Shown: positions 16,643 through 32,000 of the stretch, piece after piece | Numbering within the stretch: position 1 is the stretch's first letter | How the letters are laid out: each line of letters opens with the position of its first letter | Assembly (NCBI RefSeq): GCF_003231495.1 | Contig: NZ_PQWO01000033.1 | Span: forward strand, 6,474 to 38,473 | Length of the DNA: 32,000 bases | Reading direction: 5' to 3' | Origin: Acaryochloris thomasi RCC1774 | GTDB lineage: Bacteria > Cyanobacteriota > Cyanobacteriia > Thermosynechococcales > Thermosynechococcaceae | Translations under genes and position numbers: made by a program | Notes under the pieces: generated by a model | Seen by the model: the letters and a program-made list of their open reading frames with translations, nothing else | Databases searched by the model: none | Told to the model about the DNA's origin: nothing

Positions 16643-16918
16643 ATGATACCTGCACAACATACGACAGGCATTGCCTGTTGCGGTAAGCGTTGCTCTTGGC
16701 TAGCCGTCTCTATCGGCCTTGTCTTCTTTCTGGCTGCCCTATCGAGTGCTAAACCTGCCCAAGCTTCATTTACGAATGGAGCAGAATCCTTTTTTTCTGA
16801 GGCTTTTCCAGAGGCCAAGGGTTTTTTCCCCTTCGCCGCGAAAGCCTTTGTGGTTTTGAGCCTGACTTCTATCGCGCTTAGCTCCAGCGGTTCAGATTCA
16901 ACGAACGAAAACTCCTAA
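16643..16918 (+). CDS. Pilin-like small secreted/membrane protein, paralogue 1
   Basis: GGAG lies upstream. The signal peptide ends ...SSAKPAQA. The mature start SFTNGAESFFSEAFPE is shared with the 17891 gene. One hydrophobic helix: FAAKAFVVLSLTSIAL. Confidence 0.45.
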   Translation: MIPAQHTTGIACCGKRCSWLAVSIGLVFFLAALSSAKPAQASFTNGAESFFSEAFPEAKGFFPFAAKAFVVLSLTSIALSSSGSDSTNENS

Positions 16919-16973
16919 GTTTGGCTGCAGCGCACTTTAGGCGCTCAGTCACGCATCTGTGCAGGATTTGCCC

Positions 16974-17834
16974 ATGATTAAATCCCCACCCTTAGAATTA
17001 ATTCGTGCTGCCCAGGCCAACAATCGGCGGGCGAGAGACAGAGTATTCTCTGCCTCCTATGAGTTCGTGTCGATGATCGCTCGCCAGTGGTCATTGAGAT
17101 ATGCATATCTCGAATTTGATGATTGCCTTCAGGCTGGTTTTGAGGGGCTACTGGTCGCCATTGAGCGGTTTGACTTTTCAAAAGGCGTCCAGTTCCATAC
17201 CTATGCCAAGTGGCCGGTCTCCAACAGCATTCAAGAGCTGGAAAGGGCTGAAGCAAAACAGCAGCGAACTTACGAAAAAGCTGTCACTGCCTATAGCCAA
17301 GATTCAGCCGAACCGCTGAACTGGATAGCTGAAGCTCAAAATAACCGCAGCCTTCGCAAGCGTATCTACAAAGCGCTTAAATCTTTCTCCCGCTTAGTCC
17401 GCAAATGGCTGGTCCTGCGACTGCTGGGATACTCCTACGTCAAGATTGCTGAACGCTTCAACGTGACGCGGCATAAAGTCACTGCAATCATCAAGTCTGC
17501 GATGGGCGTCTTTCGGCAGCGGATGTTTCCAGAAGCCTATCGCTTCAAGCAGACTTTAGGTGCTCACCTGAAGCGCGGCCAGGTCAAACGCCACAAACCC
17601 GTCCCACCGCCCGCGACACCCACGCCAATACGTGCGGTCTTCAGAAGACTGCGAACGCTTGCAAGTGGCTTGCTGGGGTCAGTGCAACAGTCGGCGCAAA
17701 AGTTTGTCCAACAGGTCGTACCTGGAGCGCGCGTCAATTCGCTGTGGTCTCTAGGAGAAGACGACGATAGCTCGTCGAGCAATCCCGCTGATGTGACATC
17801 CGTGCCAGGGTCCGGCATTCCGCCGCCTGGATAG
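16974..17834 (+). CDS. Sigma-70 family RNA polymerase sigma factor (regions 2 and 4) with a ~100-aa Pro/Ser-rich tail
   Basis: Region 2: FDDCLQAGFEGLLVAIERFDFSKGVQFHTYAKW. Region 4 HTH: LVLRLLGYSYVKIAERFNVTRHKVTAIIKSAMGVFRQRM. The start is the ATG at 16974 or the GTG at 16959. Confidence 0.7.
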   Translation: MIKSPPLELIRAAQANNRRARDRVFSASYEFVSMIARQWSLRYAYLEFDDCLQAGFEGLLVAIERFDFSKGVQFHTYAKWPVSNSIQELERAEAKQQRTYEKAVTAYSQDSAEPLNWIAEAQNNRSLRKRIYKALKSFSRLVRKWLVLRLLGYSYVKIAERFNVTRHKVTAIIKSAMGVFRQRMFPEAYRFKQTLGAHLKRGQVKRHKPVPPPATPTPIRAVFRRLRTLASGLLGSVQQSAQKFVQQVVPGARVNSLWSLGEDDDSSSSNPADVTSVPGSGIPPPG

Positions 17835-17890
17835 ATTGCCCATCCTCGTGTCCAAAATCAACCCAATCTTCATCACTAAAGGAAAAACTA

Positions 17891-18355
17891 ATGCTTGGTC
17901 CTCTCTACCTTCCGCATGTCATCTTTTCTGCAGTCGTCGTGTTGCTGTGGGCCTACCCGCGTATTGCGCGTCGGTTCTCCAAATACATCGCTCGGTTGAC
18001 CGCCGCGATCTTTGGTTTTGTTGGTTTTACTGCCCTCACCACTGCTCCAGTCCGAGCGCAGTTTCTCAATGGTGGCCGGGAGTTTTTTACGACCTCCTTT
18101 CCTGATACGACTGAGTTAACCAACCTGTTATTTAATGTTTTGCTTGGTGTTTATGTAATCTATATCGCGGTTTCAGCCTTTCGTGTGTTCGGCGCGATGC
18201 GGTCTGAAGAGGGTGGCGAGTGGCTAGAGATTGCTAAGACGCCGCTCAAAATCATCCTCTCAATCACGGTCATTGATTCAATGATTGCCCTAGTTGTGAG
18301 CGGTGGTGGCGGTGGTGGTGGTGAATTTGCGGCTCTATTTCTGGGCCTTGGATAG
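17891..18355 (+). CDS. VirB2/TrbC-like pilin candidate, paralogue 2
   Basis: A long leader ends ...LTTAPVRA. The mature start is QFLNGGREFFTTSFPD. Two hydrophobic helices (LLFNVLLGVYVIYIAVSAF, LKIILSITVIDSMIALVV) give the classical T4SS pilin topology. Gly7 run near the C-terminus. Confidence 0.5.
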   Translation: MLGPLYLPHVIFSAVVVLLWAYPRIARRFSKYIARLTAAIFGFVGFTALTTAPVRAQFLNGGREFFTTSFPDTTELTNLLFNVLLGVYVIYIAVSAFRVFGAMRSEEGGEWLEIAKTPLKIILSITVIDSMIALVVSGGGGGGGEFAALFLGLG

Positions 18356-18720
18356 TGAGCAAATATCCCCTCACGGTCAAGAAAGCCCTAGGGAAGAAAG
18401 CTTCTATGGGGCCAATCCCGGCAGATATGGTGATTCCAACGATTGTGGGTGCCATCCTCTCACTGATGGCGAGAGGGGCTTTCAATCTAGATTGGCCGGT
18501 CGCCATGATCTTGTGCGCCCTGACCTTCGTGTTCTACTTCTTTCTAGTCGGTCAAAAGAGCTGGAAGTTCTACAGCTTGTTTATCGATGTCCCCACCCTG
18601 ATTCGGATTGCCCCACGATACTTGAGTCCAAGTAGCTATGAAAGAAACAAAAAAAAGGCGGAAACTGGCCGGACTAAAGGGAAGGGTTCTCGGCGCAGAA
18701 GACAGCCTAAACGTCGCTGA
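18355..18720 (+). CDS. VirB3-like small 2-TM protein (call rests on position and topology)
   Basis: It lies directly upstream of VirB4 and overlaps it. TM segments MVIPTIVGAILSLMA and WPVAMILCALTFVFYFFLV, with a Lys/Arg-rich tail. The start is the GTG at 18355 (overlapping the upstream TAG) or the ATG at 18406 (preceded by GGGAAGAAAG). Confidence 0.45.
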   Translation: MSKYPLTVKKALGKKASMGPIPADMVIPTIVGAILSLMARGAFNLDWPVAMILCALTFVFYFFLVGQKSWKFYSLFIDVPTLIRIAPRYLSPSSYERNKKKAETGRTKGKGSRRRRQPKRR

Positions 18721-21445
18721 GATCGTCGATTACCGGATGGGTGATCACGAGTTTGGTGCCTATCAGCTCCATAAGCGTGACAACGTAAAGAACACAGACA
18801 CCTATCAACTGGTGTTTGGCTTTGAAGTGAGCGGTATTCATAGCTTCGCTTCCCCCGAATCGCTAGAGAAAGATATCAATGACCTCTGCGACGGCCTCAA
18901 AGCTGCCCCTCAGGGCGAGAGCCTAACCCTGAGGCTGACCACAGAGTCAAATTGCGATCGCCGCAGGAATCAGCTAAAGAAACTGATTGCTGCGGCCTCG
19001 TCACCCGAGCTGCAGTATCTGCTGCAGGCTGAGCTGAACAGGCTGCAGCAGATCTCTGATAAGGGCGTTCGTCAACCCAAAACCCTGAGAGCCTACTGCA
19101 CCTACAGCCCTTTCCAAGTCGCGGCTCAGCAAGACTGGTACTCCAAACTGTCCGTTCAACTGATGGGGATTTGGGATAAATGCACCGATCAGGTCCAGCT
19201 CAAAGCTCAACAAGCTTTTGAAGAACTCTACGCAGACGGCTATGCCAATGGGTTCATGGACTGGTTGATTTATTTTGAGAAGCAACTAGAGCTAGCCGTG
19301 ACGCCGTTGAGCGCTGATGATCTTTGGGAGGATCTATGGAGCCGGTTCAACCAATCTGAAGCGCCAGCTCTGCCCCAGCGCATCATCTTCACTCCAGAAG
19401 GGATTGAAGAAAAGTATCACTCTCAGCAGCACTTCACCGGCCACCTGTTCAAAGAAGGTGTGCCCGACTTTGACCGCCGTTGGATTCGCAATAAAGGCCA
19501 GTTTACCGGCGTCCTAGTCTTTCAGGAGAAGCCCTACGGCTGGGCAACCGCTCGTCAGCAGCTCCGCTATCTCTGGGATGCGATGACGGCTGACGACTGG
19601 CATGACGCGGAAGTGATTACCGAGCTGCGACCGGCCAATCAGAAGCGGGCGCTGCAGGGTGCCACAGAGCTTGCCAAGGGTGCCAATCGAGAGGTTAATA
19701 ATGCCGATGGCAAGAATAAAGTCAATCGCGTCGCTGATAAGAGTAAAGATGCCGCCATTGGTGCCACGGATGCCCTGCTAGATGGTGAAGCGGCCTATTA
19801 CGTCTCCACTGTCTTTCTCGTGCATCGCAAAACGCCACGCCAGCTCGATATGGCCTGCGACAAGCTCTCGAAGATGTTTCGCGCCCCGGCAGAAGTGGAG
19901 CGAGAGGAGCAGGTGGCATGGCGGCTGTGGTTGGATGCCCTGCCGGTGGTGATGCGGACGATGCTTGCCCAGGTGCCCACCGATAGACGGAGCATGTACT
20001 TCAGCAGTGAGGTTCCGGGACTTGCGCCGCTGCTGCGGACTCGAACGCCAGCATATAGCGGTTATGAGTTTATCGCTGAATGCGGGACGCCGATTTATGT
20101 GGACCTGTATAAGCAGCATCAGCACATGGGGTTCTTTGCAACCCAGCGCGGGGGTAAGTCTGTGACCATCGGCGGCATTCTGACCCACGGGTTAGCCCAC
20201 GGTATTCCCACCGTTATCCTGGACTACCCGAAAGGCAATGGTTCTAGCACTTACAAGTATTATGCTGCCTTCATGCCAGAGGTGGAGTACTTTGATATTG
20301 GCGAAGAGTCCAACAACATCTTTGAGTGTCCTGATTGGCGATTTCTTCCCAGAGAGAAGCAAAAGCAACGCTTTAGTAGCTTCCGCGACTTCCTAGAAGG
20401 TGCCCTGCTGCTGCTGATCAATAGCGGCAGTCAGGATAAAAATCTAACGATGAACCTGCGAACCATCTTTGGGATGGCGCTCAACGAGTTTTTCTCAGAC
20501 CCTGGCATCCAGGCGCGTTATCAAAAGGCTTTAGATGGCGGTTTTGGTTCAGCAGACTGGGGAGAAATGCCAACGCTGCGGGACTTCAAGGCATTTTGCT
20601 CGAAGGCACGTCTACCTGAGATTAAGGGCAACACGGAGGACGTTGACAAGGCGCTGGGGCTGATCAACCAGCGGCTTGAATACTGGCTCAACAGCTCAGT
20701 GGGTAAAGCCATTAGTCAGCCATCGAGTTTCCGTACGGATGCGAAGATGATTGTCTTTGCCCTGCGGAATCTGGGGACAGAAGAGGATGCTGCTGTCCTG
20801 GCCCTGTCAGCCTATGCTGCTGCCCTAAGGCGATCGCTCGAACATGACAAGAGTATCTTCTTCATTGATGAAAGCCCGATTCTGTTTAAGTTTGAAGCCA
20901 TTGCCCGGTTGATTGCGACTTTGACGGCCAACGGCGGTAAGTCAGGTATTCGGGTGCTTCTGTCGGCCCAGGATGTCGATAGCATTGGTGAGAGTCCTGT
21001 GGGGTCTCAGATCCTGCAGAACCTGACGATAGTGATGATTGGGTTCATCAAAGCCAGTGCTGTTAACTCGTTCGTTAAATACCTGGGCTACCCGGAAGCG
21101 TTAATCCGAGGCAACACGAAATTTAAGCTCAATGCCAATGATCTCTATTCTCGTTGGCTGATAGTCGATGATACGGCCAAGACGAAGGTGCGCCACTATG
21201 ACACGCCGGAACGGTTAGCCCTGCTTGCGAACAACCCTGATGAGGAGCGCAAGCGTGATGAAGTGTTTGCCGCTGTCCCTGATAAGTATCAAGCCTTAGA
21301 GCTGTTTACAGGGCTACTGGTGGAGTCCATCAAGACGGGGCAGAAGTTCTACGAGGATGAGGCAGAGGCCAAGCCTGAAGCCCTGCCCCAGGTCGAAGAG
21401 CGCCCGCTGTTGTTAGCTGGCAACTTTACCGATGATGCGGCGTAG
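18638..21445 (+). CDS. virB4: VirB4/TrbE/TraC-family type IV secretion ATPase
   Basis: 935 aa. Walker A FFATQRGGKSV, Walker B KSIFFIDESP, then GIRVLLSAQDVDSI. Size and position after the small membrane proteins are typical. An alternative start is the ATG at 18737. Confidence 0.85.
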   Translation: MKETKKRRKLAGLKGRVLGAEDSLNVAEIVDYRMGDHEFGAYQLHKRDNVKNTDTYQLVFGFEVSGIHSFASPESLEKDINDLCDGLKAAPQGESLTLRLTTESNCDRRRNQLKKLIAAASSPELQYLLQAELNRLQQISDKGVRQPKTLRAYCTYSPFQVAAQQDWYSKLSVQLMGIWDKCTDQVQLKAQQAFEELYADGYANGFMDWLIYFEKQLELAVTPLSADDLWEDLWSRFNQSEAPALPQRIIFTPEGIEEKYHSQQHFTGHLFKEGVPDFDRRWIRNKGQFTGVLVFQEKPYGWATARQQLRYLWDAMTADDWHDAEVITELRPANQKRALQGATELAKGANREVNNADGKNKVNRVADKSKDAAIGATDALLDGEAAYYVSTVFLVHRKTPRQLDMACDKLSKMFRAPAEVEREEQVAWRLWLDALPVVMRTMLAQVPTDRRSMYFSSEVPGLAPLLRTRTPAYSGYEFIAECGTPIYVDLYKQHQHMGFFATQRGGKSVTIGGILTHGLAHGIPTVILDYPKGNGSSTYKYYAAFMPEVEYFDIGEESNNIFECPDWRFLPREKQKQRFSSFRDFLEGALLLLINSGSQDKNLTMNLRTIFGMALNEFFSDPGIQARYQKALDGGFGSADWGEMPTLRDFKAFCSKARLPEIKGNTEDVDKALGLINQRLEYWLNSSVGKAISQPSSFRTDAKMIVFALRNLGTEEDAAVLALSAYAAALRRSLEHDKSIFFIDESPILFKFEAIARLIATLTANGGKSGIRVLLSAQDVDSIGESPVGSQILQNLTIVMIGFIKASAVNSFVKYLGYPEALIRGNTKFKLNANDLYSRWLIVDDTAKTKVRHYDTPERLALLANNPDEERKRDEVFAAVPDKYQALELFTGLLVESIKTGQKFYEDEAEAKPEALPQVEERPLLLAGNFTDDAA
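18954..18961. repeat. HIP1 octamer GCGATCGC
   Basis: Exact GCGATCGC read in the sequence. Confidence 0.9.
20830..20837. repeat. HIP1 octamer GCGATCGC
   Basis: Exact GCGATCGC read in the sequence. Confidence 0.9.
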
Positions 21446-21508
21446 GAACAGCTTTCGATGGCTTTTGCAATAGGTAAGTGGACGTCCACTTATTTTGGAG
21501 AACTCCAA

Positions 21509-22279
21509 ATGAAACGAATTAAGAAACTCGCGCTCATTGGTGCGATCGCTATCCCTGTAACGCTGGGGGTGGGGCAAAATGCCAAGGCTCAAGACTTCTT
21601 TGGTTCTGTTATTAGCGGCTTTGGTGAGGAAGTTGGCGGCATTGGCGGCGGCATTTTTAGAGGTGCTTTTACTGCGGTCACTGGCTTTGAAACACCCCAG
21701 CTCTTTGCCCAAGATATGTTTTCTAGCATCCTTGGCAAGGAGAAACTAGACCTCCCTATTGCCAGCAACGTTGAAGAGCATGTCGGTGAGCTGGGGAGTG
21801 TTGACCTTCAGAGTGCGGCTGAAGCGAGTCAAGATAGCCTCCAGGGGCTGATCGAAGACAACACTGGAATCATGTCCAATATGGCTGCTAAGGCTCAGGG
21901 CCAGTCCTTCCAACGTGCCGCTATTCAGGCGAGTGCTCAAAATACACTCTCTCAGGAGGCCCAGACTGCAGCAAGGTCTAGCATCGAGAGTACTGGTGAA
22001 ACGAATGCGAAGCAGGCAGAAGCTCTCAGTGACGTGATGCAGTTTACGGTCACCCAAGACATTGCCAAGTATCAGGCGGTTCTCAACCAAGCCCAGAACA
22101 ACATCTTGGGCGATATCAAGGCGGGGCAGATTACCTCAGCTCAGTCTGATGCTCAGACCAATCAACTGCTATCGAATATCGATGGTTCGCTGGCGGAGAT
22201 TAAGAATCAGGGTTCAGATTCAAATGCAGGTGCTATTGCTAGCTTGAGTGCGAGTAAAGGTGCATTGAATCTTTTCTAG
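21509..22279 (+). CDS. Secreted Gln/Ala/Ser-rich helical protein (VirB5/TrbJ-like by position only)
   Basis: The ATG at 21509 has GGAG 8 nt upstream. Signal peptide MKRIKKLALIGAIAIPVTLGVGQNAKA. The mature ~230 aa is low in hydrophobics and rich in Q/A/S. Confidence 0.55.
   Translation: MKRIKKLALIGAIAIPVTLGVGQNAKAQDFFGSVISGFGEEVGGIGGGIFRGAFTAVTGFETPQLFAQDMFSSILGKEKLDLPIASNVEEHVGELGSVDLQSAAEASQDSLQGLIEDNTGIMSNMAAKAQGQSFQRAAIQASAQNTLSQEAQTAARSSIESTGETNAKQAEALSDVMQFTVTQDIAKYQAVLNQAQNNILGDIKAGQITSAQSDAQTNQLLSNIDGSLAEIKNQGSDSNAGAIASLSASKGALNLF
21542..21549. repeat. HIP1 octamer GCGATCGC
   Basis: Exact GCGATCGC read in the sequence. Confidence 0.9.
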
Positions 22280-22307
22280 ATGAGTAATCGTTAAAGCCTC
22301 TGTGGAG

Positions 22308-22339
22308 TTGTTGTGCCTCTGTTTTCAGGGGCACAACAA
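22308..22339 (+). terminator. Strong 14-bp-stem hairpin 29 nt after the 22279 stop (terminator or attenuator-like; no U-tail)
   Basis: TTGTTGTGCCTCTG-tttt-CAGGGGCACAACAA, with one G-T wobble position. Confidence 0.45.
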
Positions 22340-22347
22340 GATGAAAT

Positions 22348-22776
22348 ATGTATAAAAAAAAGGGATCAATCTTTAGTTCCCCATTAGGGAGATCTAGATC
22401 TTCTCAAGCATATAGGGAGAGAGCCACCGATATGTTGCTTTCGGAGATGTCGCGAGTTTCGCCTGACTCTCCTGCTTATGAGAAGTTGCTCGAACAGTTA
22501 AAGCGACTTTCAAAGGATGAATCAAATTCTGAGGACGAACTTCGCAGGCAAAGGCTAAATAAGAGACTTCAGGCAATCTCTCATATCAATCAAATGCCTG
22601 TATGGTTTCAAGTAATATTTATTCTCTCACTATTGTATTTGATCGTTCTGTTCATTGATGCTTCAGGTTTTTGGTTTGGCTACGATTTCCTCAATAACAA
22701 TCCACCACCTGTTCAATCAAGCCTAATGCGTACTCCTGATTATCGATATATCCAACAAGCCCCGAGTATTCCATAA
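22348..22776 (+). CDS. Hypothetical protein with a C-terminal TM helix
   Basis: 142-aa ORF. TM helix VWFQVIFILSLLYLIVLFI. Its TAA overlaps the next ATG (TAATG at 22774-22778). No clear SD, so the start is uncertain. Confidence 0.5.
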   Translation: MYKKKGSIFSSPLGRSRSSQAYRERATDMLLSEMSRVSPDSPAYEKLLEQLKRLSKDESNSEDELRRQRLNKRLQAISHINQMPVWFQVIFILSLLYLIVLFIDASGFWFGYDFLNNNPPPVQSSLMRTPDYRYIQQAPSIP

Positions 22777-23990
22777 TGTTGAATCTTTTTCGCATACCAG
22801 AAGATCAACTATTCGATGTGAAGCCTTCTGAGTATATTGATCAGCCAAAAGCTGTGTGGCGTAACTATCACAATCGCAAGTTATTTATCAATCTACTTTT
22901 GCTGAGTCTGGTTGCATTGATCCTGATGTTTCTGCCGCATCAAGCTGTGGCACAGGTTCCTGATAGTCCTATTGAGTTGCTCGTGAATTCGGGCATAGCA
23001 ATCCAAGAAGCTATCTCCGATTCAGTTGAAGAGGCGTGGATGGAGCAACTGCCCCTGTTTATGCTGATTCTCAATCAGTTAGCAATAGGAATTGCGGTGA
23101 TTTCTATTATTTTCCTTGGCCTTGAATTAGTTCAGGAGCAAAGAGAGTGGGGGTATTTTACTTGGCAGCGCATAGTTATACCCTTGGTGATGATCGGCCT
23201 TGTTGGTAATGTCAGCTTTATGTCTGATGTTGCGTTCGGACTGCGAAATGAACTCAACCAGCTCAGCGTGAATGCTTATACAACCTTAGGTGTCATAGAT
23301 CTTATTGACGAGGCGCGGAATGCGGATGCGTTGCCTAAGATTCTGTCAGACGTATGGGCAGAGTGTCGAGCCGCTGATCAAGCGTTGAGTGGGGCATGTA
23401 TTGAGGATGCAATTAGCAATTCGAATGAGATCATTGATATAGAAAATCGATCATTCCCTGGTGCGGGTTGGGTAGATCATTACAGAAATATTTTGACTGA
23501 GATTGGTGATAACTTTACGGATGGAGACTTCAATCCCTTAATCACAATTCCTGAATTATTGCGGGACGTTCAGTTTGCACTTATAAGTCCCGCAATAATT
23601 AATCTGTTCACAATCTTTGCTACGGGTGTTCAGAGTGCAGCTCAGATGCTGATTGAGCTTGTTCTTTTCCTGACAGCAATGCTTCTTCCTCTGGCTGTAG
23701 CTCGGTCTATATCTGAGGGCTTTGACCCGCTTTTAGGCTGGTTTATGAAGATGCTCGAATTTGCGATGGTGAAGTTCTTTTTGACGATCCTTATAGGGTT
23801 GGCGAGTATCATCTATCTTGATGCTGGTGGAGTAGGGGGTGCTCTGTGGTTTCCCATGCTGACTGGGATTCTAAGCCCTATCCTTGCCTTCTCTCTCGCT
23901 TCAGGAGGTGGATCGTCGATCGTTCAGTCTGTCCTTGGGGCTGTAGGTGCGGTTGCTGGCATTGCCTATAAGGGCTTCAAGCTCAAATAG
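22776..23990 (+). CDS. Polytopic inner-membrane protein, VirB6/TrbL-like by topology and position
   Basis: At least 6 hydrophobic helices (e.g. LPLFMLILNQLAIGIAVISIIFLGL, IVIPLVMIGLVGNVSF, LIELVLFLTAMLLPLAVA, FAMVKFFLTILIGLASIIYL, LWFPMLTGILSPILAFSLA), with a central ~110-aa loop. Confidence 0.55.
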   Translation: MLNLFRIPEDQLFDVKPSEYIDQPKAVWRNYHNRKLFINLLLLSLVALILMFLPHQAVAQVPDSPIELLVNSGIAIQEAISDSVEEAWMEQLPLFMLILNQLAIGIAVISIIFLGLELVQEQREWGYFTWQRIVIPLVMIGLVGNVSFMSDVAFGLRNELNQLSVNAYTTLGVIDLIDEARNADALPKILSDVWAECRAADQALSGACIEDAISNSNEIIDIENRSFPGAGWVDHYRNILTEIGDNFTDGDFNPLITIPELLRDVQFALISPAIINLFTIFATGVQSAAQMLIELVLFLTAMLLPLAVARSISEGFDPLLGWFMKMLEFAMVKFFLTILIGLASIIYLDAGGVGGALWFPMLTGILSPILAFSLASGGGSSIVQSVLGAVGAVAGIAYKGFKLK

Positions 23991-24477: not shown

Positions 24478-24540
24478 TAATGACCTCAATGCTTATTTAC
24501 AACTTATGACATTGACGTGATTTTGTTCCTGGAGATTTTG

Positions 24541-25146: not shown

Positions 25147-25189
25147 CTCTCCACTCCGATGCACCCGATCGCAATTCCACCGACCAGTC

Positions 25190-25678: not shown

Positions 25679-25756
25679 TTACAGCTTAACAGCGCCAAGA
25701 AATACAACAAATTCCGCGACTTGCAATAGATAGATAGCAAGTCTAGGAGTTGTGCT

Positions 25757-26557
25757 GTGTTAAAAACCCTAACCCGCCCCAGGCGGACAACAGAACCACC
25801 TGAGGAGTCCTCAGAACCACTGCGGAAGTCCCCTGCTACCCGGCAAGGTAACTTCCATAAGTTTGTAGCTGCTGCCCTAGGCTTACAAATCTTCACAGCC
25901 TTGGGTGTGCTGCTGCTGGGGATGGGGTACCTGCGCCTATCGAGCCGCCCTCCAGTGCTGGTGGAGCGGGCCAACGGGGAATCGTTCCAGGCAGAGCAGC
26001 AGGATCCAGACTATCGAGATTCCAAAGCGATTCAAGAGTTTGTGGAGACGATGTACGGCTCTTTGTACAACTGGTCAAAGGTCACCACTACCAAAGGTGG
26101 CTTCAAGGCAGAGACGGGTTACCAACGGGGCAAGGTCAACATCCCGCTGCGGATGGCTGCAGCAGAATTCGGACTTTCCCCTGAAGGAGACTTCCGGGCC
26201 GGGGTGCTCGACAAGCTAGCAAAAAGTTATGGCCGTTATGCCCGTTCCGTCCAAGCGGGTGATTTTTCGCAGCTGATCAACATTCGAGAGGTATCCGACC
26301 CAATGCCTTTGGAAGACGGCGGTTGGAAAGTGTCGATTGTGTCGGACCTGATTATCACCTCACGCACGGCTCGTCCTGAGAATATCCCTCTGAATCAGAC
26401 GGTGTATATCAGCCCTGACCATCGAGATAAATTACCGGACCCCACAAATGAGTTTGAGGCCCATCGCAATGAGATTAGAGCCTATGGCCTGCTGATCTAT
26501 GCCATCCGCGATATCGAAGTTGATGATCCCACTGCCGAGTCGAGAGCATTCCGATGA
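25757..26557 (+). CDS. Bitopic membrane protein, VirB8/TrbF-like by topology and position
   Basis: GTG start with AGGAG 7 nt upstream. A ~35-aa cytoplasmic N-terminus, TM helix FVAAALGLQIFTALGVLLLGMGYL, then RPPVLVERANGESF...AIQEFVETMYGSLYNWS, which is reminiscent of the start of the VirB8 periplasmic domain. Confidence 0.45.
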   Translation: MLKTLTRPRRTTEPPEESSEPLRKSPATRQGNFHKFVAAALGLQIFTALGVLLLGMGYLRLSSRPPVLVERANGESFQAEQQDPDYRDSKAIQEFVETMYGSLYNWSKVTTTKGGFKAETGYQRGKVNIPLRMAAAEFGLSPEGDFRAGVLDKLAKSYGRYARSVQAGDFSQLINIREVSDPMPLEDGGWKVSIVSDLIITSRTARPENIPLNQTVYISPDHRDKLPDPTNEFEAHRNEIRAYGLLIYAIRDIEVDDPTAESRAFR

Positions 26558-27927
26558 CCGAGAAAATTCAATTTTTCCCAAACGCAAAAGCAGAAGAAGC
26601 CCCCCAAGCCGCCGAGCTAGACACCAGCTCCATCGTTGTTGACCTTCCGGCAGATTCTGCTTCTGAAGAAGATGAGGCTTTGCTTCCAGAGGACTTCGAC
26701 CCAGAGGAGCTAGATATCGAAGCGGCTCGTACGGTCCAGCATCCGATGCAGACGCCTTGGACAAAGATGGCTGTGGTCTTTGTGCTGTGTACGGCAGGCT
26801 TTGCTGTATTGATGCTTTGGTATAACTCCGCCAAAGGGGTCAAGCTAACGAAAAAGCAAGAAAAAACCGAGCGGGTTCAACTCGCGTCTGCAGCGGAGGT
26901 GAATGCGAATAGCGATCGGATAGAAAACGCCGTCCAGTCCGGTAATATCGCCCGAGAACGAGCGGCAGACAAGCTAGCTGAAGCAGAGAAGCAGAATCAA
27001 AAGGACGCTAGAACTCAAAATAAGCCAGCCCCTCGTCCCCCCTCTCGCTCCACCACCGCCAGCCGCCCTGCTCCACCGCCGCCGAGATCCCCGCGCCCCC
27101 GTCCTCGGATCGCGTCCCGTCCTGCTCCACCACCCCGCAGAGTCTCTCCCGCTCCCCCACCCAGGCCCGCGCCCAGGTCGGCTCCAGCCCCTGCGCCCGT
27201 AGTGGCTAAAGCTAAGCCAGTGGATCGCTCACCTGTGTATGGCGGTCAGCTTCCCCAAGCCGAATCCGCCCCCGTTCAGCCCAATCAACCTGAATTTGAA
27301 TCTCAGCTTGTGTCACAACAGGCTGAGTTTGACGAATTTGCCAGTGGTCCTGGGCAGAACGCCCCCTTAGCCGCGCAACAGGATGCATTCCTGCAGGGCC
27401 AGACGATGACGACGGTTCCCTCGGGCACCACGCTCCGAGCCTCCGTAGAATCGGAGGCGATTGCTTCCGATAGCGCGACCTTCACCGCCGTCACGACGGA
27501 GGAAATCGCTGGCATACCGCAGGGTTCAGAAGTGTTGGCCCAGATTGTCCAGTTAGCTCCTGGCGGCTACTTTGAGGCGGAACTGATCGCGCTCAATGGT
27601 TCAGAAGTAAGTCCTGGGAGCACTCGGATTTTCAGGGATAACGGCAAGCTGATGCGGGCCAAGGGTGGGAAGCGCAAAAAGGGCTTTTTCAGTAGTGGCC
27701 TGGGCCGGATGCTCACCGGCTTTGCTCAGGATGCCGGAGAGAGCTGGATCCGCGATCGGGTGGGTGGCAACCGGACGCTGAACAACGGAGCCAGAGAAGT
27801 CTTAGTGCTGGCAGATCAGCCCCGGTCACGCCAGTCGGACACGAGGGAGCCAGAAGAAACATCTGTGCTCATTCCCACCGGCAGCATTGTGATCACATTC
27901 GAGCAAGAAGCTTATATATCGAGGTAA
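26554..27927 (+). CDS. VirB10/TrbI-like protein
   Basis: ATGA overlap with the upstream gene. Acidic N-terminus, TM helix MAVVFVLCTAGFAVLMLWY, and a Pro-rich tract KPAPRPPSRS...RPAPPPPRSPRPRPRIASRPAPPPRRVSPAPPPRPAPRSAPAPAP. The C-terminal domain begins TVPSGTTLRASVESEAIASD and ends VLIPTGSIVITFEQEA, matching VirB10 edge motifs (ipaGtxixaxLxtxixSD ... G). Confidence 0.6.
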   Translation: MTEKIQFFPNAKAEEAPQAAELDTSSIVVDLPADSASEEDEALLPEDFDPEELDIEAARTVQHPMQTPWTKMAVVFVLCTAGFAVLMLWYNSAKGVKLTKKQEKTERVQLASAAEVNANSDRIENAVQSGNIARERAADKLAEAEKQNQKDARTQNKPAPRPPSRSTTASRPAPPPPRSPRPRPRIASRPAPPPRRVSPAPPPRPAPRSAPAPAPVVAKAKPVDRSPVYGGQLPQAESAPVQPNQPEFESQLVSQQAEFDEFASGPGQNAPLAAQQDAFLQGQTMTTVPSGTTLRASVESEAIASDSATFTAVTTEEIAGIPQGSEVLAQIVQLAPGGYFEAELIALNGSEVSPGSTRIFRDNGKLMRAKGGKRKKGFFSSGLGRMLTGFAQDAGESWIRDRVGGNRTLNNGAREVLVLADQPRSRQSDTREPEETSVLIPTGSIVITFEQEAYISR

Positions 27928-27933
27928 TTGATT

Positions 27934-29337
27934 ATGTTCAAACAATACGCACCCTTGGCCTTGCTGGGAGCCGCAACGACCGCGGTTGTCCTGCCGTCAT
28001 TGCCAGCCCAAGCCGCTCAGCGGTTCACCGTCTCGCAGGCGGCAGAGAAAGCCAAGGTGAATCTTAATCCCAACGAAGGGGTATACATCCAGCTACCGCC
28101 CTCAATGCCGATCAGTTCCTATTCCATAGACGATGGTTCCGTGCTGACCCTCGGAGGCAAATTCAGCCCTGGCACTAACATTCTTCGGATTGTGGGTAAG
28201 AACCCTGGCAAAACAGGGTTGGGTCTGGTGGTCCAGGGTGGCTCTGGTTACCAGACGCTGAACTTAGCTGTCCGTGTTGGCAATAAGGGTAGTCAAGGCA
28301 CGATTGAGATTACTGAGGATTCTTTGCCTCAGGGGGATACCCCAGCTCCACAAGCGAGAAATGCAGCGCAATCAAAGTTAAGCTATCCATCCGATTTGGT
28401 TCGCAGCGGTTTGAGTCTTGCCAATATCCAGGGGCAGATACCTGCTGGTTCACCGCTAGACATGGCCGTCAACCAGTGGATTGATGCGGTTGAGCAAGGG
28501 GTAAATGAAACGGATGCCTCACGTCGGTCGGGTGTTCAGTCGAATGTTTTGCAGCGGCTCACTGAGCTGGGTCAAACGACGCCCGTTGTTCAATCGCCTC
28601 CTCCAGAGTCATCGCCCACTGCCATACTCCCATCAAATCCTCCTTCCCTTCCTGAAGCTGCCAAGAATGAAGAGATTTCAGATGCTGTCGCTTCACGGAT
28701 TGCTGCTTTAGAGAAGCAGGTTGAGACGAACACGAATGTTCTTTCAAAGCAGAAGAAAATCCTGGCTCAGGTTGAATCACAGCAGCAAACCTTTCTCGCT
28801 CGTTTTGATGCAATCGATTCCCAGAGCGAACAGTTCTTAGCTCAGCTCAGCGATATCAAGGCGGCAGACTCTAAGCCAGAGGAGAGTGCCACTGCTCAAG
28901 CTGTTCAGGTGCTCCCCTCTTCAGAAGCCGATTCCGAGCCAGTCGCTGAAGCCGAACCTCAAGCAGATGAGCAATCTGTTGTTGTGGCGAAGGAGGCAGC
29001 AGAACAGCCTCCTGAAGAAACGGAAGCTGAAACGAAAGCTGCATCGGTTCCGGTTATGAACGAACCAGAGGAGCAATTGCCTGAGGCTTCAAATGATTCG
29101 TTAGAGGAGATGAACTCTATTGAGCTAGCTCACGCTATTAAGCAAGGTTTGCACCAGAACTCGAAGGACTATCCCTACAGCTCTTGGAAGTATCGTCAGG
29201 TCAATAATGCTGTTCTAATCCTCAAGCGAGGAAACTCGATTGAGACAGCTTCCAAGTGGTCGGGTCTGGAGCTAGAGACCCTGCTTCAGCTTGCGAATGA
29301 AACACCCATGCAGGTTAGCCAAGGAGTTTCGCAATGA
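27934..29337 (+). CDS. Secreted multidomain protein: N-terminal beta-rich domain (VirB9 / pilus-secretin N-domain-like), internal duplicated HTH-like module, coiled coil, acidic tract
   Basis: GAGG lies 9 nt upstream of the ATG. Signal peptide MFKQYAPLALLGAATTAVVLPSLPAQA. VNLNPNEGVYIQLPPSMPISSYSIDDGSVLTLGG...NILRIVGKNPGKTGLGLVVQGGSGYQTLNLAVRV resembles the N-terminal domains of VirB9/CpaC-type proteins. The functional call is weak. Confidence 0.4.
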   Translation: MFKQYAPLALLGAATTAVVLPSLPAQAAQRFTVSQAAEKAKVNLNPNEGVYIQLPPSMPISSYSIDDGSVLTLGGKFSPGTNILRIVGKNPGKTGLGLVVQGGSGYQTLNLAVRVGNKGSQGTIEITEDSLPQGDTPAPQARNAAQSKLSYPSDLVRSGLSLANIQGQIPAGSPLDMAVNQWIDAVEQGVNETDASRRSGVQSNVLQRLTELGQTTPVVQSPPPESSPTAILPSNPPSLPEAAKNEEISDAVASRIAALEKQVETNTNVLSKQKKILAQVESQQQTFLARFDAIDSQSEQFLAQLSDIKAADSKPEESATAQAVQVLPSSEADSEPVAEAEPQADEQSVVVAKEAAEQPPEETEAETKAASVPVMNEPEEQLPEASNDSLEEMNSIELAHAIKQGLHQNSKDYPYSSWKYRQVNNAVLILKRGNSIETASKWSGLELETLLQLANETPMQVSQGVSQ

Positions 29338-31025
29338 GAAGATTCACAGCACTTTTGTTGGGGGCTGCGGCCCTCGCATTAACGACCGTCAGTGCTAGCG
29401 CGATCGTAGACCCCTTCCATCAGCCCAGCCTGGATAACCTGACCTTTCGGGACTTACCGCCTGCCGATACTGGTGGAGAGATACAGATCCCTGGTGGACC
29501 CGGTATCCATTGGGAACGGGGCGAATCGCCCTCTGATTATTTGCCTGTGGGTGTGATCATGGACGGTTTGGGCGTCGGTGATCTGACACTCAATGATATT
29601 GGTGATGCTGTCGGTGTTAGTCCCGGCAAGTACACCTTAGATGATTTATTCCCGATGCAGTGGCAGACGCTTCAGCACTTGGTTGATGCCGTCCCTGAAC
29701 TGCCGAACTATCGGGTGGCAGACGTGAAGCCTATTTTTGATGCATTGGGCGGGCAATACGCCGATTCGCTGATCGTTAATTTACCGACGGATGCCTTATC
29801 CAAGACCATTCCCAACTTGGTTGATTATTCTATTCACGACATCCCCAACTTAGCCAATACGCCCCTTGACCACTTTGACCGAGCGGGATGGTCCGAGATC
29901 TATGGGATTCCCGGCCTAGAGGATTTACCGTTTAGTAAATATCCCACCGCTTTGAAGACGCCGTTTTGGGCAAAGGTGGATGTTGTGTATGGAGATAAGG
30001 AATCCACGCGGCGGGACACCATCACCGGGTCGGTTCAGGAGAATAGCTGGTCGGTCCCCTGCGAGCAGCCCTGTGCCTATCTAGAGATGACCAATGCCCA
30101 TACCGCCAGCGGCAACCTGAGCAAGTTTGGCTATCACGGCAAGCATTACATCGCAGGTGACTTCCAGAAGGTTAAGGGCGGCTGGGCCGGTCAGGAAAGT
30201 AACTGGGTGGGCGGTTATGAACCTGCCGGTCAACTGCCCTTTGGTGACTTTGCGAAGGTTTCAGCAGCCGGTCTGACTGAACAAAAAGGCAAGGGAGAGT
30301 TGCGCCTCAACTTTCGCTATTGTGAGCGGAGCTTTGGGGTGACGAAAGCCTGTACTCCCTACGGTGTGCATAACGGGATTGTGTCTACTCCCTTCATGCC
30401 GTTCAAGGAGACGGGAATTATCCCCGTGATGGCATTGACGGGCGCTCCTGCCAACAATGGGAGTCCCTCGAAAGAGGATAAGGCAGATGTTGATAAGACC
30501 GACCCTACCAAAACTGAGAAGGGTGGGAGTAATCCAATCAAGGGTATCAATCCGCCGAAGATTGGCTCATCTGAGCAGGGACAGTCGAGTACGACGCCAC
30601 CCCCTGCTGCTGAAGATGAATGCAAGTATGACGGGCAAGCGATGTACAAGCCTGTTGCAGGGCCGATAACTTCAGGTTATGGATATCGAACTCACCCTAT
30701 TTCAGGGCAAAGACGTTTGCATGGTGGGATGGATATCGGTGCTCCTCATGGTATGGCGATCGGTGCAGCCGAATGTGGTGAGGTTGTCTTTGCCGGTTGG
30801 CATGGGGCTGCTGCGGGAAATGTCGTCACTATTGATCATGGAGGGGGTATCAAGACTCAGTATCTTCACATCTGTGCAGGATGCTTTTTCGTAAAGGTCG
30901 GTGCTCAGATGGAGCGGGGTGAAAAGATTGCTCGTGTCGGCAGTACAGGCAATTCGACGGGGCCGCACTTGCATTTTAACGTTAAGCAAAATGGCACTAA
31001 CAAAGACCCAGCAAATTACCTTTAG
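29334..31025 (+). CDS. Secreted protein with a C-terminal M23 (LytM-type) metallopeptidase domain
   Basis: AAGGAG lies upstream, with an ATGA overlap. Signal peptide MRRFTALLLGAAALALTTVSASA. M23 motifs HGGMDIGAP (HxxxD), GNVVTIDHGGGIKTQYLH, GSTGNSTGPHLHF (HxH). The N-terminal ~430 aa is unrecognised. Confidence 0.85.
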   Translation: MRRFTALLLGAAALALTTVSASAIVDPFHQPSLDNLTFRDLPPADTGGEIQIPGGPGIHWERGESPSDYLPVGVIMDGLGVGDLTLNDIGDAVGVSPGKYTLDDLFPMQWQTLQHLVDAVPELPNYRVADVKPIFDALGGQYADSLIVNLPTDALSKTIPNLVDYSIHDIPNLANTPLDHFDRAGWSEIYGIPGLEDLPFSKYPTALKTPFWAKVDVVYGDKESTRRDTITGSVQENSWSVPCEQPCAYLEMTNAHTASGNLSKFGYHGKHYIAGDFQKVKGGWAGQESNWVGGYEPAGQLPFGDFAKVSAAGLTEQKGKGELRLNFRYCERSFGVTKACTPYGVHNGIVSTPFMPFKETGIIPVMALTGAPANNGSPSKEDKADVDKTDPTKTEKGGSNPIKGINPPKIGSSEQGQSSTTPPPAAEDECKYDGQAMYKPVAGPITSGYGYRTHPISGQRRLHGGMDIGAPHGMAIGAAECGEVVFAGWHGAAAGNVVTIDHGGGIKTQYLHICAGCFFVKVGAQMERGEKIARVGSTGNSTGPHLHFNVKQNGTNKDPANYL

Positions 31026-31040
31026 CTCTGGAGCCTGTTG

Positions 31041-31643
31041 ATGAAAAGATCACACATTGGTATCACGATTACTGCAATCTCTATCTTCGTTGGAGCGGGA
31101 TGGGCAATAACTTCAATGCAATCTAAGGCTGGTTCAAGGGATGAGCTTAAGCATGATAAGGACTGCTTACAGGTTGGCTTTGAAAATACAGTCTTGACCG
31201 AAGAATCCTATGGTGGCAAGCAATACAAGCTCGTTCGCTCTCGCAAGACAGATGATAGCGGCTGGATCATTGATCAGTACAGCATTGTTACTGCCGACAA
31301 TGCTGGTTGCACTGTGAGTAGCGAGAGGTTCTCCGATAAGCTCCCTACTACAGAACTGCAAGAAAAAATAGTTCTAGCTTATTGGCGTTCTCAGGCTAGT
31401 TCTTCAAAGGAGAAAGTAAATTTAGAGGAATTCCTAGCTAACACCCCCATCGGCATAACGGGTGTTTCTAGCTTGGGCTTGCTTCAGCAGGACTTGGACG
31501 CCCTCGATCAGCTTGGTGTGAAATATCCGAGCTATGTCAAAGCTATCGACAGCTTTGATTCACCAGAAAAAGCGGAGGAGTACTACCTCACGATTTTTAA
31601 TGACCAATGGTTTAAAGCCCACCCAGAAGCAGGAGCAGACTAA
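31041..31643 (+). CDS. Membrane-anchored hypothetical protein
   Basis: GGAG lies 7 nt upstream of the ATG at 31041. N-terminal anchor IGITITAISIFVGAGWAITSM. Confidence 0.55.
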   Translation: MKRSHIGITITAISIFVGAGWAITSMQSKAGSRDELKHDKDCLQVGFENTVLTEESYGGKQYKLVRSRKTDDSGWIIDQYSIVTADNAGCTVSSERFSDKLPTTELQEKIVLAYWRSQASSSKEKVNLEEFLANTPIGITGVSSLGLLQQDLDALDQLGVKYPSYVKAIDSFDSPEKAEEYYLTIFNDQWFKAHPEAGAD

Positions 31644-32000
31644 TGCCTAGCCAAAGCCCAAGAGTAGATACGACATCCGCACGATCTGCAGAATCAGAGA
31701 CACGTCAGACGACCGAGAAGGCGGCAACAGCGCTGTTGTTGTTGCTGAAGCAATGGAAGTTACATGCACCGCCTGATATCCAGGCGAAGATCGGCCCCAA
31801 CCCTGAAGTGTCAGTGCGTGTGGGTGAAGAAGTCTATAAGGGTTTGGCCGATAGCCCTGCGATAAAAGCCATCCCCAAAGATGATTTAGACTACCTGAAA
31901 ATTGCCACCGGCATGGCTCAGGGATATTCCCATGCCGACCTGACGCGAGATGTGGAGATCAAGGTAGGGGGTCGCAAAGTCTTCGAGGTGGCCGGTGGTA
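31643..32000 (+). CDS. Hypothetical protein, 5' part; runs off the right edge
   Basis: The ATG at 31643 overlaps the upstream TAA (TAATG). The frame is open to the window end: MPSQSPRVDTTSARSAESETRQTTEKAATALLLLLKQWKLHAPPDIQ... It is not in the ORF track because it has no stop. Confidence 0.45.
   Translation, partial: MPSQSPRVDTTSARSAESETRQTTEKAATALLLLLKQWKLHAPPDIQAKIGPNPEVSVRVGEEVYKGLADSPAIKAIPKDDLDYLKIATGMAQGYSHADLTRDVEIKVGGRKVFEVAGG

Follow-up and report, generated by a model that had tools for sequence, protein, structure and literature searches.

What kind of machinery is encoded by the dense gene series that closes a 32,000-nucleotide stretch of contig NZ_PQWO01000033.1 from the marine cyanobacterium Acaryochloris thomasi RCC1774, and does it belong to a conjugative plasmid? 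The series occupies positions 16643-32000 of this stretch (hereafter the window, meaning all 32,000 nucleotides). An initial annotation, made from the letters alone, had called it a type IV secretion system (T4SS) of the cyanobacterial mating-pair-formation (MPF) class MPF-C. That call is now supported by counterparts of all nine proteins of the MPF-C model locus, arranged in the model's order. We propose that 16643-32000 is the MPF module of a conjugative plasmid of RCC1774 and represents a divergent sub-lineage of MPF-C, a reading in which we have good confidence.

Counterparts of the MPF-C model proteins

The published model for MPF-C is the locus on plasmid pCC7120alpha of Nostoc sp. PCC 7120 (Guglielmini 2014, PMC4027160), which is anchored by VirB4 (alr7206), VirD4 (alr7213) and a relaxase of the MobV type (alr7199) (PMC8600333). 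The numbering alr7204-alr7212 used here was fixed by counting genes between the anchors alr7206, alr7213 and alr7199 (locus L004). We take alr7204, alr7205, alr7207, alr7208, alr7209, alr7210, alr7211 and alr7212 to be the names of the CONJscan MPF-C profiles as well. Detection of the class has been described as relying on 'eight profiles' (Guglielmini 2014, PMC4027160). Each of the nine model proteins (9/9) is represented in the window by a counterpart, and the set keeps the model's order within at most 14 kb; seven of these are detected by BLASTP and two by profile comparison with hhalign. With the ATPase set aside, BLASTP finds six of the eight accessory families (E 5e-4 to 6e-40) and hhalign the other two. 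The cluster and its core genes are as follows.

16643-32000, mainly plus strand: MPF/T4SS gene cluster, a dense series of open reading frames (ORFs) running to the window end
16643..16918, plus strand: putative gene of 91 aa, a short paralogue of the 17891 protein, with a signal-peptide-like N-terminus and one hydrophobic helix
17891..18355, plus strand: alr7204-family protein with a long signal peptide and two hydrophobic helices (BLASTP, hydropathy); counterpart of alr7204 by BLASTP, E 1.4e-15
18355..18720, plus strand: alr7205-family protein with two transmembrane (TM) segments, VirB3-like by size, topology and position (BLASTP, hydropathy); counterpart of alr7205 by BLASTP, E 4.7e-4, and 3e-14 to the Gloeothece homologue
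18638..21445, plus strand: VirB4-type T4SS ATPase of the MPF-C lineage, 935 aa (C1752_10581); counterpart of alr7206 by BLASTP, 38% identity over 870 aa, E = 0
21458..22279, plus strand: alr7207-family secreted protein rich in Ala, Gly, Ser and Gln, VirB5 analogue by position; counterpart of alr7207 by BLASTP, E 4e-6
22776..23990, plus strand: alr7208-family polytopic inner-membrane protein with at least six TM segments, VirB6-like (hydropathy, BLASTP); counterpart of alr7208 by BLASTP, E 4e-9
25757..26557, plus strand: alr7209-family bitopic protein with one TM segment and a periplasmic domain of ~200 aa, at the VirB8 position; counterpart of alr7209 by BLASTP, E 2.4e-15
26554..27927, plus strand: VirB10/TrbI-like protein with an N-terminal acidic region, TM segment, Pro-rich linker and C-terminal beta domain; counterpart of the alr7210 (VirB10) family by hhalign, 96.4%, E 1e-9, residues 275-415
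27928..29337, plus strand: alr7211-family secreted protein with a VirB9-like N-terminal beta domain, helical modules and a coiled-coil/acidic insert; counterpart of the alr7211 family by hhalign, 85%, E 6e-6, residues 10-217
29334..31025, plus strand: fusion protein in which a signal peptide precedes an alr7212-family domain (aa 31-359) that is joined to an M23 metallopeptidase (aa 462-559); aa 31-359 are the counterpart of alr7212 by BLASTP, E 6e-40

These matches support the placement of 16643-32000 as a divergent member of the cyanobacteria-specific MPF-C class. The gene order agrees with that of the MPF-C model locus and broadly with VirB systems, which bears out the canonical T4SS order claimed initially. 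The sub-lineage has as its members, so far, two copies in A. thomasi and two contigs derived from the Sequence Read Archive (SRA), L003/L007 and L005.

The ORF map contains every ORF that had been named, and five start/stop overlaps are real: those at 18355 (TAGTG), 22776 (TAATG), 26554 (ATGA), 29334 (ATGA) and 31643 (TAATG). The description of the genes as co-directional and tightly packed fits the dense plus-strand series and has to be amended for two minus-strand genes, 23983-24489 and 25190-25678. These two had been overlooked, as had the sigma-70-family gene at 16959-17834, the gene for a 142-aa protein at 22348-22776 and the TPR gene at 24517-25146. The remark that the module is built mostly of unrecognisable proteins is justified, in that Pfam recognises only the sigma, TPR, DUF29 and M23 parts. 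All 15 of the 15 cluster ORFs are full length in comparison with relatives (50-75% protein identity). The cyanobacterial host that HIP1 content had pointed to is borne out both by the source strain, to whose database entries the ATPase, the M23 protein and the truncated last protein are 100% identical, and by a count of GCGATCGC, which occurs 8 times against 0.27 expected (~30-fold), a number reached in 0 of 100 shuffles. A scan for promoters and terminators gave no signal above chance, a scan for tRNAs and Rfam families found none, and megablast of the region against plasmids returned no match.

The contig, of 38,473 bp, is a candidate plasmid contig. Base 32000 of the window is its end, where the last ORF is recorded in the database as a 119-aa 'partial' protein, and ~6.4 kb of contig sequence precede position 1 of the window. 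The RCC1774 genome is a draft of 72 contigs, for some of which its authors suspected a plasmid origin (PMC6002478).

A VirB4-type ATPase

By profile comparison, the large ATPase is of the VirB4 type. A profile of 107 family sequences aligned with a profile of nine MPF-T VirB4 sequences at an hhalign probability of 99.4% (E 2.4e-21), and the 729 aligned columns cover the N-terminal domain as well; F TraC scored 98.2%, and the controls were lower, VirD4 at 89.4% over 331 columns and VirB11 at 78.8% over 60 columns. In the PDB the sole whole-domain match of the same 107-sequence profile is the VirB4 C-terminal domain 4ag5 (E 6e-8, 330 residues), whereas the matches to FtsK, EccC, HerA and TrwB cover 40-57 residues around Walker A. 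Template profiles here and below were built from 6-9 MPF-T sequences each, taken from nine virB operons, and the MPF-C families were enlarged with cyanobacterial plasmid loci; comparisons by hhalign with single pTi or F sequences lacked sensitivity. Searched as a single sequence, the ATPase has no Pfam match and only two NCBIfam matches, to TraC (9e-4) and VirB4 (0.026), both far below cut-off. PDB searches with the single sequence and with a 6-sequence ATPase profile gave nothing useful, and two scans of the GTDB genome collection, one with the ATPase alone and one with an alignment of its relatives, gave no matches.

The Walker motifs, initially described as intact, are both present: Walker A is ATQRGGKS at aa 501-508 (nt 20138-20161) and Walker B is IFFIDE at aa 740-745 (nt 20855-20872). 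Gly506, Lys507, Asp744 and Glu745 are conserved in at least 90% of the 107 family representatives, and Lys507 and Glu745 are invariant. Within this family the protein is distant from its known relatives. It is 38-41% identical over ~870 aa to alr7206 and to the pCC7120beta and Gloeothece ATPases; tblastn against PLSDB matched 134 cyanobacterial plasmids, with identities that do not exceed 41%; and a search of 1.84 billion cluster representatives returned 422 relatives at E <= 1e-3, of which 231 reach E <= 1e-30, and beyond the protein's own 50%-identity cluster the nearest of them is 41% identical. In a neighbour-joining tree with pTi VirB4 and F TraC as outgroups, which represent two of the eight MPF classes, the ATPase is nested in the family beside the alpha/beta/Gloeothece clade, as part of a four-member long-branch clade made up of the window protein, its paralogue and the two SRA-derived relatives. 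An AlphaFold2 (AF2) model from a 4-sequence alignment reached a mean predicted local distance difference test score (pLDDT) of 40.2.

Pilin candidate and inner-membrane proteins

Which protein could form the pilus? The protein at 17891, which BLASTP also matches to pCC7120beta (5e-15) and Gloeothece (1e-12), belongs to the alr7204 family, whose best template is VirB2 (hhalign 53.8%, E 1.3e-4, 83 of 115 columns; the runner-up scores 6.8%). These results suggest that 17891 is the best candidate for a VirB2-type pilin. Guglielmini 2014 reported no VirB2 homologue in MPF-C (PMC4027160), and the weak VirB2 link of the alr7204 family, absent from that study, may be new. Two signal-peptide proteins had been proposed as pilin-like; 17891 keeps that description by its topology and template match, and 16643 is reduced to a short paralogue. 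The latter has a BLASTP match of 52% over 27 aa (E 8e-6) and has in common with 17891 and the alr7204-like protein of L005 the post-signal motif A-Q/S-x-F-x-N-G-x-x-x-F-F-x-x-x-F-P.

The protein at 18355 is also matched by BLASTP to pCC7120beta (1.7e-7). Its description as a two-TM VirB3-like protein stands as to the two TM segments, seen in hydropathy, and the adjoining VirB4 gene; the match of its family to the VirB3 profile, at 1.4%, does not bear it out. The VirB3-like family hidden Markov model (HMM) matches the N-terminus of the 1015-aa ATPase of Acaryochloris marina plasmid pREB6 (E 5e-6), which implies a VirB3-VirB4 fusion in pREB6 and lends the VirB3-like assignment indirect support. 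The pREB6 and pREB1 ATPases are ~100 aa longer, and it is the pREB6 extension that matches the VirB3-like HMM. In the window the VirB3-like and VirB4 genes overlap out of frame by 83 nt (18638-18720). An overlap of these genes is also found in L003 (68 nt), L005 (74 nt) and Gloeothece (32 nt), and in neither pCC7120 alpha nor beta; it could serve translational coupling or give rise to a fusion made by frameshifting.

The alr7207-family protein at 21458 is 54% identical to its homologue in L003 and 29% to that in L005 (BLASTP). Its true start is probably Met18 (nt 21509), because the alignment to relatives begins at residue 19. For 22776, with further BLASTP matches to pCC7120beta (1.3e-10) and Gloeothece (4.6e-15), the best template of the alr7208 family is VirB6 (55.3%, E 1.2e-4, 64 columns), and all other templates score 7% or less. 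The earlier count of at least six TM segments agrees with hydropathy, and the VirB6-like assignment itself is suggestive. Similarly, the bitopic topology claimed for 25757 is upheld by hydropathy (one TM segment), and BLASTP finds relatives also in pCC7120beta (6e-14) and Gloeothece (7e-13), but the link to VirB8/TraE was not reproduced by sequence or profile comparison. VirB8 homology of the alr7209 family was claimed by Guglielmini 2014 (PMC4027160), and the VirB8 assignment of 25757 rests on that claim and on gene position. Pfam scans of the family consensus sequences of alr7204, alr7205, alr7207, alr7208, alr7209, alr7211 and alr7212 gave nothing above noise.

Putative outer core and wall hydrolase

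The gene at 26554 was described as VirB10-like, with a TM segment, a Pro-rich tract and a C-terminal domain, and this topology is seen: the TM segment lies at aa 68-93, and a 75-residue stretch containing 26 Pro comes after it. The combined alr7210 family matches the VirB10 profile at 87.5% (E 3.6e-6) and F TraB at 75.7%, and its consensus matches Pfam TrbI (2.1e-14; 54 bits, cut-off 35). Taken singly, the window protein matches nothing in Pfam, and the sub-lineage profile found nothing useful in the PDB. The family matches support the assignment of 26554 as VirB10-like. Likewise, the secreted beta-rich protein of the initial annotation, 27928, is supported as VirB9-like: the enlarged alr7211 family matches the VirB9 N-terminal domain (residues 1-118) at 89.6-91.3% (E 1-2e-6). 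No match to the VirB9 C-terminal domain was found in the alr7211 family, and the window protein continues instead as helical and coiled-coil modules. Two copies of a helical module were observed in 27928, at aa ~155-215 (VRSGLSLAN...GVQSNVLQRLTELG) and aa ~400-460 (LAHAIKQGLH...SGLELETLLQLA), separated by a coiled-coil/acidic insert whose length varies among relatives; the model proteins have a single copy.

What had been called an M23 wall hydrolase, 29334, is in fact a two-domain fusion in which the M23 domain is joined to an alr7212-like domain. The M23 part matches Pfam PF01551 (E 7.9e-27; 93.7 bits against a cut-off of 28.7), and its zinc-binding motifs HxxxD (HGGMD, aa 463) and HxH (HLH, aa 545) are intact. 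An AF2 model of the fusion, made from five sequences, has a pLDDT of ~40 overall and is confident for the M23 domain alone (70-88). The alr7212 family gave no signal to any of the template profiles. The protein is presumed to be a peptidoglycan-remodelling component. We considered whether the M23 fusion is unique to the sub-lineage and rejected this, since alr7212-hydrolase fusions are common in MPF-C plasmids: the alr7212 domain is also fused to M23 in Leptolyngbya, Picosynechococcus, Planktothrix and A. marina pREB6, and to VanY in pREB1. These recurrent hydrolase fusions on the alr7212 domain may be a new, if minor, by-product of the analysis.

Genes particular to the sub-lineage

Beyond the model set, the cluster contains the following genes.

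16959..17834, plus strand: sigma-70-family sigma factor at the head of the cluster, with regions 2 and 4 and a Pro/Ser-rich tail of ~100 aa
22348..22776, plus strand: 142-aa bitopic membrane protein, sub-lineage-specific
23983..24489, minus strand: 168-aa membrane protein with one TM segment, conserved within the cluster
24517..25146, plus strand: secreted TPR-repeat protein, accessory (Pfam TPR_1, 9.8e-8)
25190..25678, minus strand: DUF29 gene (Pfam, E 1e-55), with the TPR gene on one side and the VirB8-position gene on the other
31038..31643, plus strand: 201-aa protein with a hydrophobic segment at its N-terminus, whose gene follows that of the M23 fusion
31643..32000, plus strand: first 119 codons of a gene of 342-374 aa, cut by the contig end

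The sigma factor is recognised by NCBIfam TIGR02937 (E 1.5e-18; 67 bits, the cut-off being 42.9, with positions 2-164 of the 165-position model covered) and by Pfam Sigma70_r2 (2.8e-8, above cut-off), the region 4 models remaining below theirs. Every member of the sub-lineage has such a gene at the head of its cluster: a sigma70_r2 gene stands in the same place in L003, L005 and L006 (43% and 31% identity), and no orthologue was found on PLSDB plasmids. The idea that a sigma gene beside the T4SS is unique to the sub-lineage was rejected, because A. marina pREB1 has an unrelated one: a 400-aa sigma-70-family gene directly upstream of its T4SS, similar to the window sigma factor in region 2 only. 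From this it follows that the association of sigma gene and T4SS recurs in Acaryochloris, and sigma genes heading Acaryochloris T4SS operons may be a second new observation of minor weight.

The 22348 protein is 44% identical to the product of the same-position gene in L003/L007 (E 3e-40), where L005 has a 51-aa gene instead; the model loci lack it, and no family match was obtained. The 23983 protein, also without a family match, is kept in the same place and on the same strand in L003/L007 (37%, E 1e-36) and L005 (29%, E 1e-18). The TPR gene is found in the closest relative only (46% identity to L003 7788-8381) and is absent in L005, and the DUF29 gene is absent from the corresponding place in both L003/L007 and L005. 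Downstream of the hydrolase, the 31038 protein, which has no family match, is 41% identical to its same-position homologue in L005 and 32% to that in L007, and the partial 31643 protein is 73% identical to a 374-aa protein of L007 and 60% to a 342-aa protein of L005. Specific to the sub-lineage are the genes for the 142-aa and the minus-strand 168-aa proteins, the TPR gene and the pair that follows the hydrolase.

Relatives and the place of the coupling protein

Where is the type IV coupling protein (T4CP)? The statement that no relaxase or coupling protein is visible in the window is correct, in that neither the coupling protein nor the relaxase-containing ORF that the closest relative carries is matched by any of its ORFs. 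The two closest loci, L003/L007 (ATPase 74% identical) and L005 (51% identical), keep the window gene order. It runs sigma, alr7204-like, VirB3-like, VirB4, alr7207-like, small gene, VirB6-like and minus-strand gene, and continues with VirB8-position, VirB10-like, alr7211-like, alr7212::M23, ~205-aa gene and ~350-aa gene. In both relatives a VirD4-type T4CP comes after this series (from 14261 onwards in L005; 15065-16756 in L007), with the Pfam domains T4SS-DNA_transf, TrwB_AAD_bind and TraG-D_C, and in L007 an ORF with TrwC and DUF3854 domains lies 4.6 kb past the T4CP. The window has no T4CP because its contig stops before the place where the relatives carry theirs; by analogy with them, we strongly infer that the T4CP gene lies one or two genes past the contig end, in agreement with A. 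marina pREB6, which has both a T4CP and MobF.

At the other end of the cluster, the independent contigs L003 and L005 both start less than 300 bp ahead of the sigma gene (sequence up to 296 and 174, respectively), which suggests a repeat or hypervariable junction there; the window holds the short pilin-like paralogue 16643-16918 at that place. A second T4SS copy was observed on another RCC1774 contig (16,218 bp), with an ATPase 84% and an M23 fusion 85% identical to those of the window. The implication is that one cell has either two related plasmids or the module in duplicate, which raises the question of exclusion or incompatibility between the copies.

Proposed mechanism and competing explanations

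We propose that the module would work as follows. The sigma-70-family protein would direct transcription of the operon. The VirB3-like, VirB4, VirB6-like and alr7209 proteins would form an inner-membrane platform, from which the VirB10-like protein would span the periplasm by its Pro-rich linker and build an outer core with the VirB9-like protein, while the M23 fusion would open the peptidoglycan locally. The alr7204-like subunits would polymerise into a VirB2-type pilus or channel lining, and the alr7207 protein would act as a VirB5-like tip or adhesin. The coupling protein, presumably encoded just past the contig end, would deliver the relaxase-bound single plasmid strand to the channel; the relaxase would be of the MOBF type and encoded elsewhere on the plasmid, and the strand would be transferred into a recipient cyanobacterium.

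A bolder joint reading goes further, and we regard it as possible yet doubtful. It sees in the locus a self-regulating MPF-C variant whose operon would be switched on by its own divergent sigma-70-family factor. The products of 22348, 23983, 31038 and 31643 would be new structural or exclusion components, and the alr7204 family would be the missing VirB2-type pilin. The alr7212 family would serve as a scaffold, peculiar to cyanobacteria, by which interchangeable wall hydrolases (M23, VanY) are brought to the channel.

Several observations weigh against reading the cluster as a conjugative MPF module. Among the assignments, the alr7205 family's match to the VirB3 profile is not significant, the alr7207 family has no match to the VirB5 profile, and the alr7209 family gave no signal to VirB8/TraE by sequence or profile comparison, in the PDB or in Pfam. 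The pilin and VirB6 profile links reach only ~55% probability, the AF2 models of the ATPase and of the alr7212::M23 fusion both stay near a pLDDT of 40, and the role of the sigma factor is argued from gene position and conservation only. Furthermore, the window holds no counterpart of the closest relative's coupling protein or relaxase-containing ORF, no oriT is noted in it, although no search was aimed at one, conjugative competence is something that we infer for the RCC1774 element, many cyanobacterial plasmids have VirB4 or VirD4 without a recognised relaxase (PMC8600333), and no MPF-C system has been functionally dissected (PMC12282955).

Could the cluster then be a functional T4SS that serves some purpose other than conjugation, such as effector or protein delivery, contact-dependent competition, DNA release or uptake, or the biogenesis of filaments or adhesion structures? 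Such a role would suit the lack of a relaxase and T4CP in the window, the several extra conserved genes that the sub-lineage has beyond the model set, and the finding that 88% of surveyed cyanobacterial plasmids carry only VirB4 or VirD4 (PMC8600333); it would also suit the nearest PLSDB relative by ATPase, Gloeothece Cy782201 (L002), which has no adjacent annotated T4CP or relaxase and is typed non-mobilizable. However, both close relatives have a VirD4-type T4CP in the same operon, one of them has a TrwC-domain ORF nearby, the syntenic backbone of pREB6 includes a T4CP and MobF, the locus adjoins plasmid Rep- and ParB-like genes, and no effector-like or toxin-immunity genes were recognised, so that we consider a non-conjugative role unlikely. 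That we see here the relic of a conjugation system no longer active, kept on the plasmid without being expressed or without essential parts, is in our view quite unlikely: the assembly is fragmentary, the second copy, 84-85% identical, could make one of the two redundant, and the DUF29 gene absent from relatives is inserted at 25190-25678 on the minus strand, but the 15 of 15 full-length ORFs, the preserved translational-coupling overlaps, the intact Walker A/B and M23 metal-binding motifs, and genes free of frameshifts and of insertion sequence elements speak against it.

The identity of the ATPase bears on a further alternative, in which it would be an FtsK/HerA-type translocase of a non-T4SS membrane complex with a superficial resemblance to a T4SS. 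Individual family members weakly match DUF87/HerA, FtsK and TrwB_AAD_bind, the top PDB match by E-value is a chain of the FtsK/SpoIIIE family (4nh0, 3e-8), and the window protein, as noted, lacks a Pfam match and falls far below the NCBIfam cut-offs for TraC and VirB4. Yet the FtsK, HerA and TrwB matches are short P-loop alignments of 40-57 residues against 330 residues for VirB4 4ag5, the VirB4 profile is matched along 729 columns that take in the N-terminal domain, the neighbouring genes match VirB10/TrbI and VirB9, and the T4CP is a separate gene in relatives. These comparisons uphold the VirB4 identity first proposed and make an FtsK/HerA-type translocase extremely unlikely. We retain the MPF module of a conjugative plasmid as the preferred explanation.

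The plasmid backbone

The left half of the window contains these genes.

3470-5146, minus strand: Ser/Thr kinase ending in TPRs, strongly matched by models of the PD-T4-6 anti-phage defence kinase (E 7e-79)
5143-6540, minus strand: STAND NTPase (NACHT/NB-ARC), overlapping the kinase gene by 4 nt
6711-7340 and 7600-8700, plus strand: two tandem ParB-N-like genes, mutually similar, paired likewise on pREB6
9720-11762, plus strand: Rep-like protein of 680 aa with primase-polymerase-like motifs LVIDIDH and SSYSGGLHLY

A. marina MBIC11017 plasmid pREB6 has the same order of genes, namely kinase (minus strand), STAND NTPase/NB-ARC (minus strand), ParB, ParB, Rep-like, T4SS, M23 fusion, T4CP and MobF, and its backbone proteins are 27-51% identical to those of the window. 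This synteny marks the window as a fragment of a pREB-like plasmid. The kinase and STAND NTPase, which occupy the same position on pREB6 (35% and 27% identity), may be a plasmid-borne defence or surveillance module. No ParA was seen beside the tandem ParB-N-like genes. The Rep-like protein has no family match and a weak PDB match to the LigD primase-polymerase domain (E 0.036); it occurs on 74 cyanobacterial plasmids, eight Acaryochloris plasmids carrying homologues at ~50% identity, and probably represents a family of replication initiators of plasmids that has not been annotated and differs from CyRepA1.

Between this backbone and the cluster, at 13245-14945 on the plus strand, we noted a 566-aa protein encoded ~1.7 kb upstream of the T4SS cluster and co-directional with it. 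It combines an N-terminal zinc-ribbon-like CxxC pair, a TM segment, a domain resembling periplasmic substrate-binding proteins and an OmpA-type peptidoglycan-binding C-terminus, with a weak match to OmpA-like IcmN/DotK (4e-4). The ORFs at 14948-15697, 15663-15998 and 15965-16525 have no family matches. At the left edge, a cytochrome P450 gene lies at 2060-3388 on the minus strand (Pfam 9e-66), and the first 2 kb have a lower G+C content (37-42%) and contain Pro-rich ORFs (418-738 and 745-1053) without matches, possibly non-coding.

Standing of the class and significance

MPF-C is one of eight recognised classes of conjugation machinery, defined in 2013-14 and routinely detected by CONJscan. 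Cyanobacterial plasmids carry pigment, secondary-metabolite and defence genes, and their movement therefore matters for cyanobacterial evolution and for the building of genetic tools. The locus described here adds a deep, rare branch to this known and already catalogued class and is not a new kind of system. Apart from Muro-Pastor 1994, MPF-C systems 'remain hypothetical' according to a 2025 review (PMC12282955), with which the initial remark that no member has been experimentally dissected agrees. As cited in PMC8600333 and PMC12282955, Muro-Pastor 1994 reported pCC7120alpha to be transmissible.

What can be learned from an additional member is which parts of the class are constant and which are not. 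Constant are the nine core families, the order in which they stand and the fusion of a wall hydrolase with the alr7212 domain; the sigma factor, the accessory genes and the relaxase type vary. This comparison can aid the choice of targets for a first experimental dissection of MPF-C. We know of no genetic tools for RCC1774, and because of this and the early end of the contig the locus opens no new question by itself.

Comparison with known systems

How does the window system compare with better-known machineries? In Agrobacterium VirB/VirD4 (MPF-T) and F Tra, the order of pilin, VirB3, VirB4, VirB5-position, VirB6, VirB8-position and VirB9/VirB10 components matches that of the window, where, in contrast to the VirB order, the VirB10-like gene is upstream of the VirB9-like gene. 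Profile homology to MPF-T/MPF-F extends to VirB4 (99.4%), VirB10/TraB (87.5%/75.7%) and the VirB9 N-domain (~90%) and is weaker for VirB6 and VirB2; the ATPase is only ~17% identical to theirs. The window lacks VirB11, VirB7 and a VirB1-type lytic transglycosylase, and the M23 endopeptidase fusion would take the wall-hydrolase role; the alr7212 family has no counterpart in MPF-T/MPF-F.

The T4SS of pREB6, unlike its backbone, belongs to a different and more distant lineage. Its ATPase is 27.6% identical to that of the window and has the VirB3-like N-terminal fusion, the pREB6 and pREB1 ATPases being ~1015-1048 aa long as compared with 935 aa, and most of its other T4SS components are not detectable by BLASTP against the window. 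The hydrolase fusions of pREB6 and pREB1 are larger than that of the window and include VanY. In pREB1 the VirB9-like gene directly follows the sigma gene and does not follow VirB10, and pREB6, unlike pREB1, has no annotated sigma gene at its T4SS.

Finally, among the closest described systems is that of pCC7120alpha, from which the window differs in several ways. Sequence identity is low, at 38% for the ATPase, and the VirB10- and alr7211-like proteins are detectable only through profiles. The window has in addition the sigma-70 factor, the 142-aa protein, the minus-strand 168-aa protein and the TPR protein, as well as an M23 domain on its alr7212 homologue and the 83-nt overlap of the VirB3-like and VirB4 genes, and its lineage has two additional genes between the hydrolase and the T4CP position. 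The relaxase of the window's relatives is of the TrwC/MOBF type, that of pCC7120alpha is MobV, and the pair of a VirB11-like 'ATP-binding protein' and DUF192 found upstream in pCC7120alpha is missing from the window. The two systems nevertheless have in common the nine MPF proteins, their gene order, a cyanobacterial host and a plasmid location, and a VirD4-type T4CP lies downstream both in pCC7120alpha and in the window's relatives.

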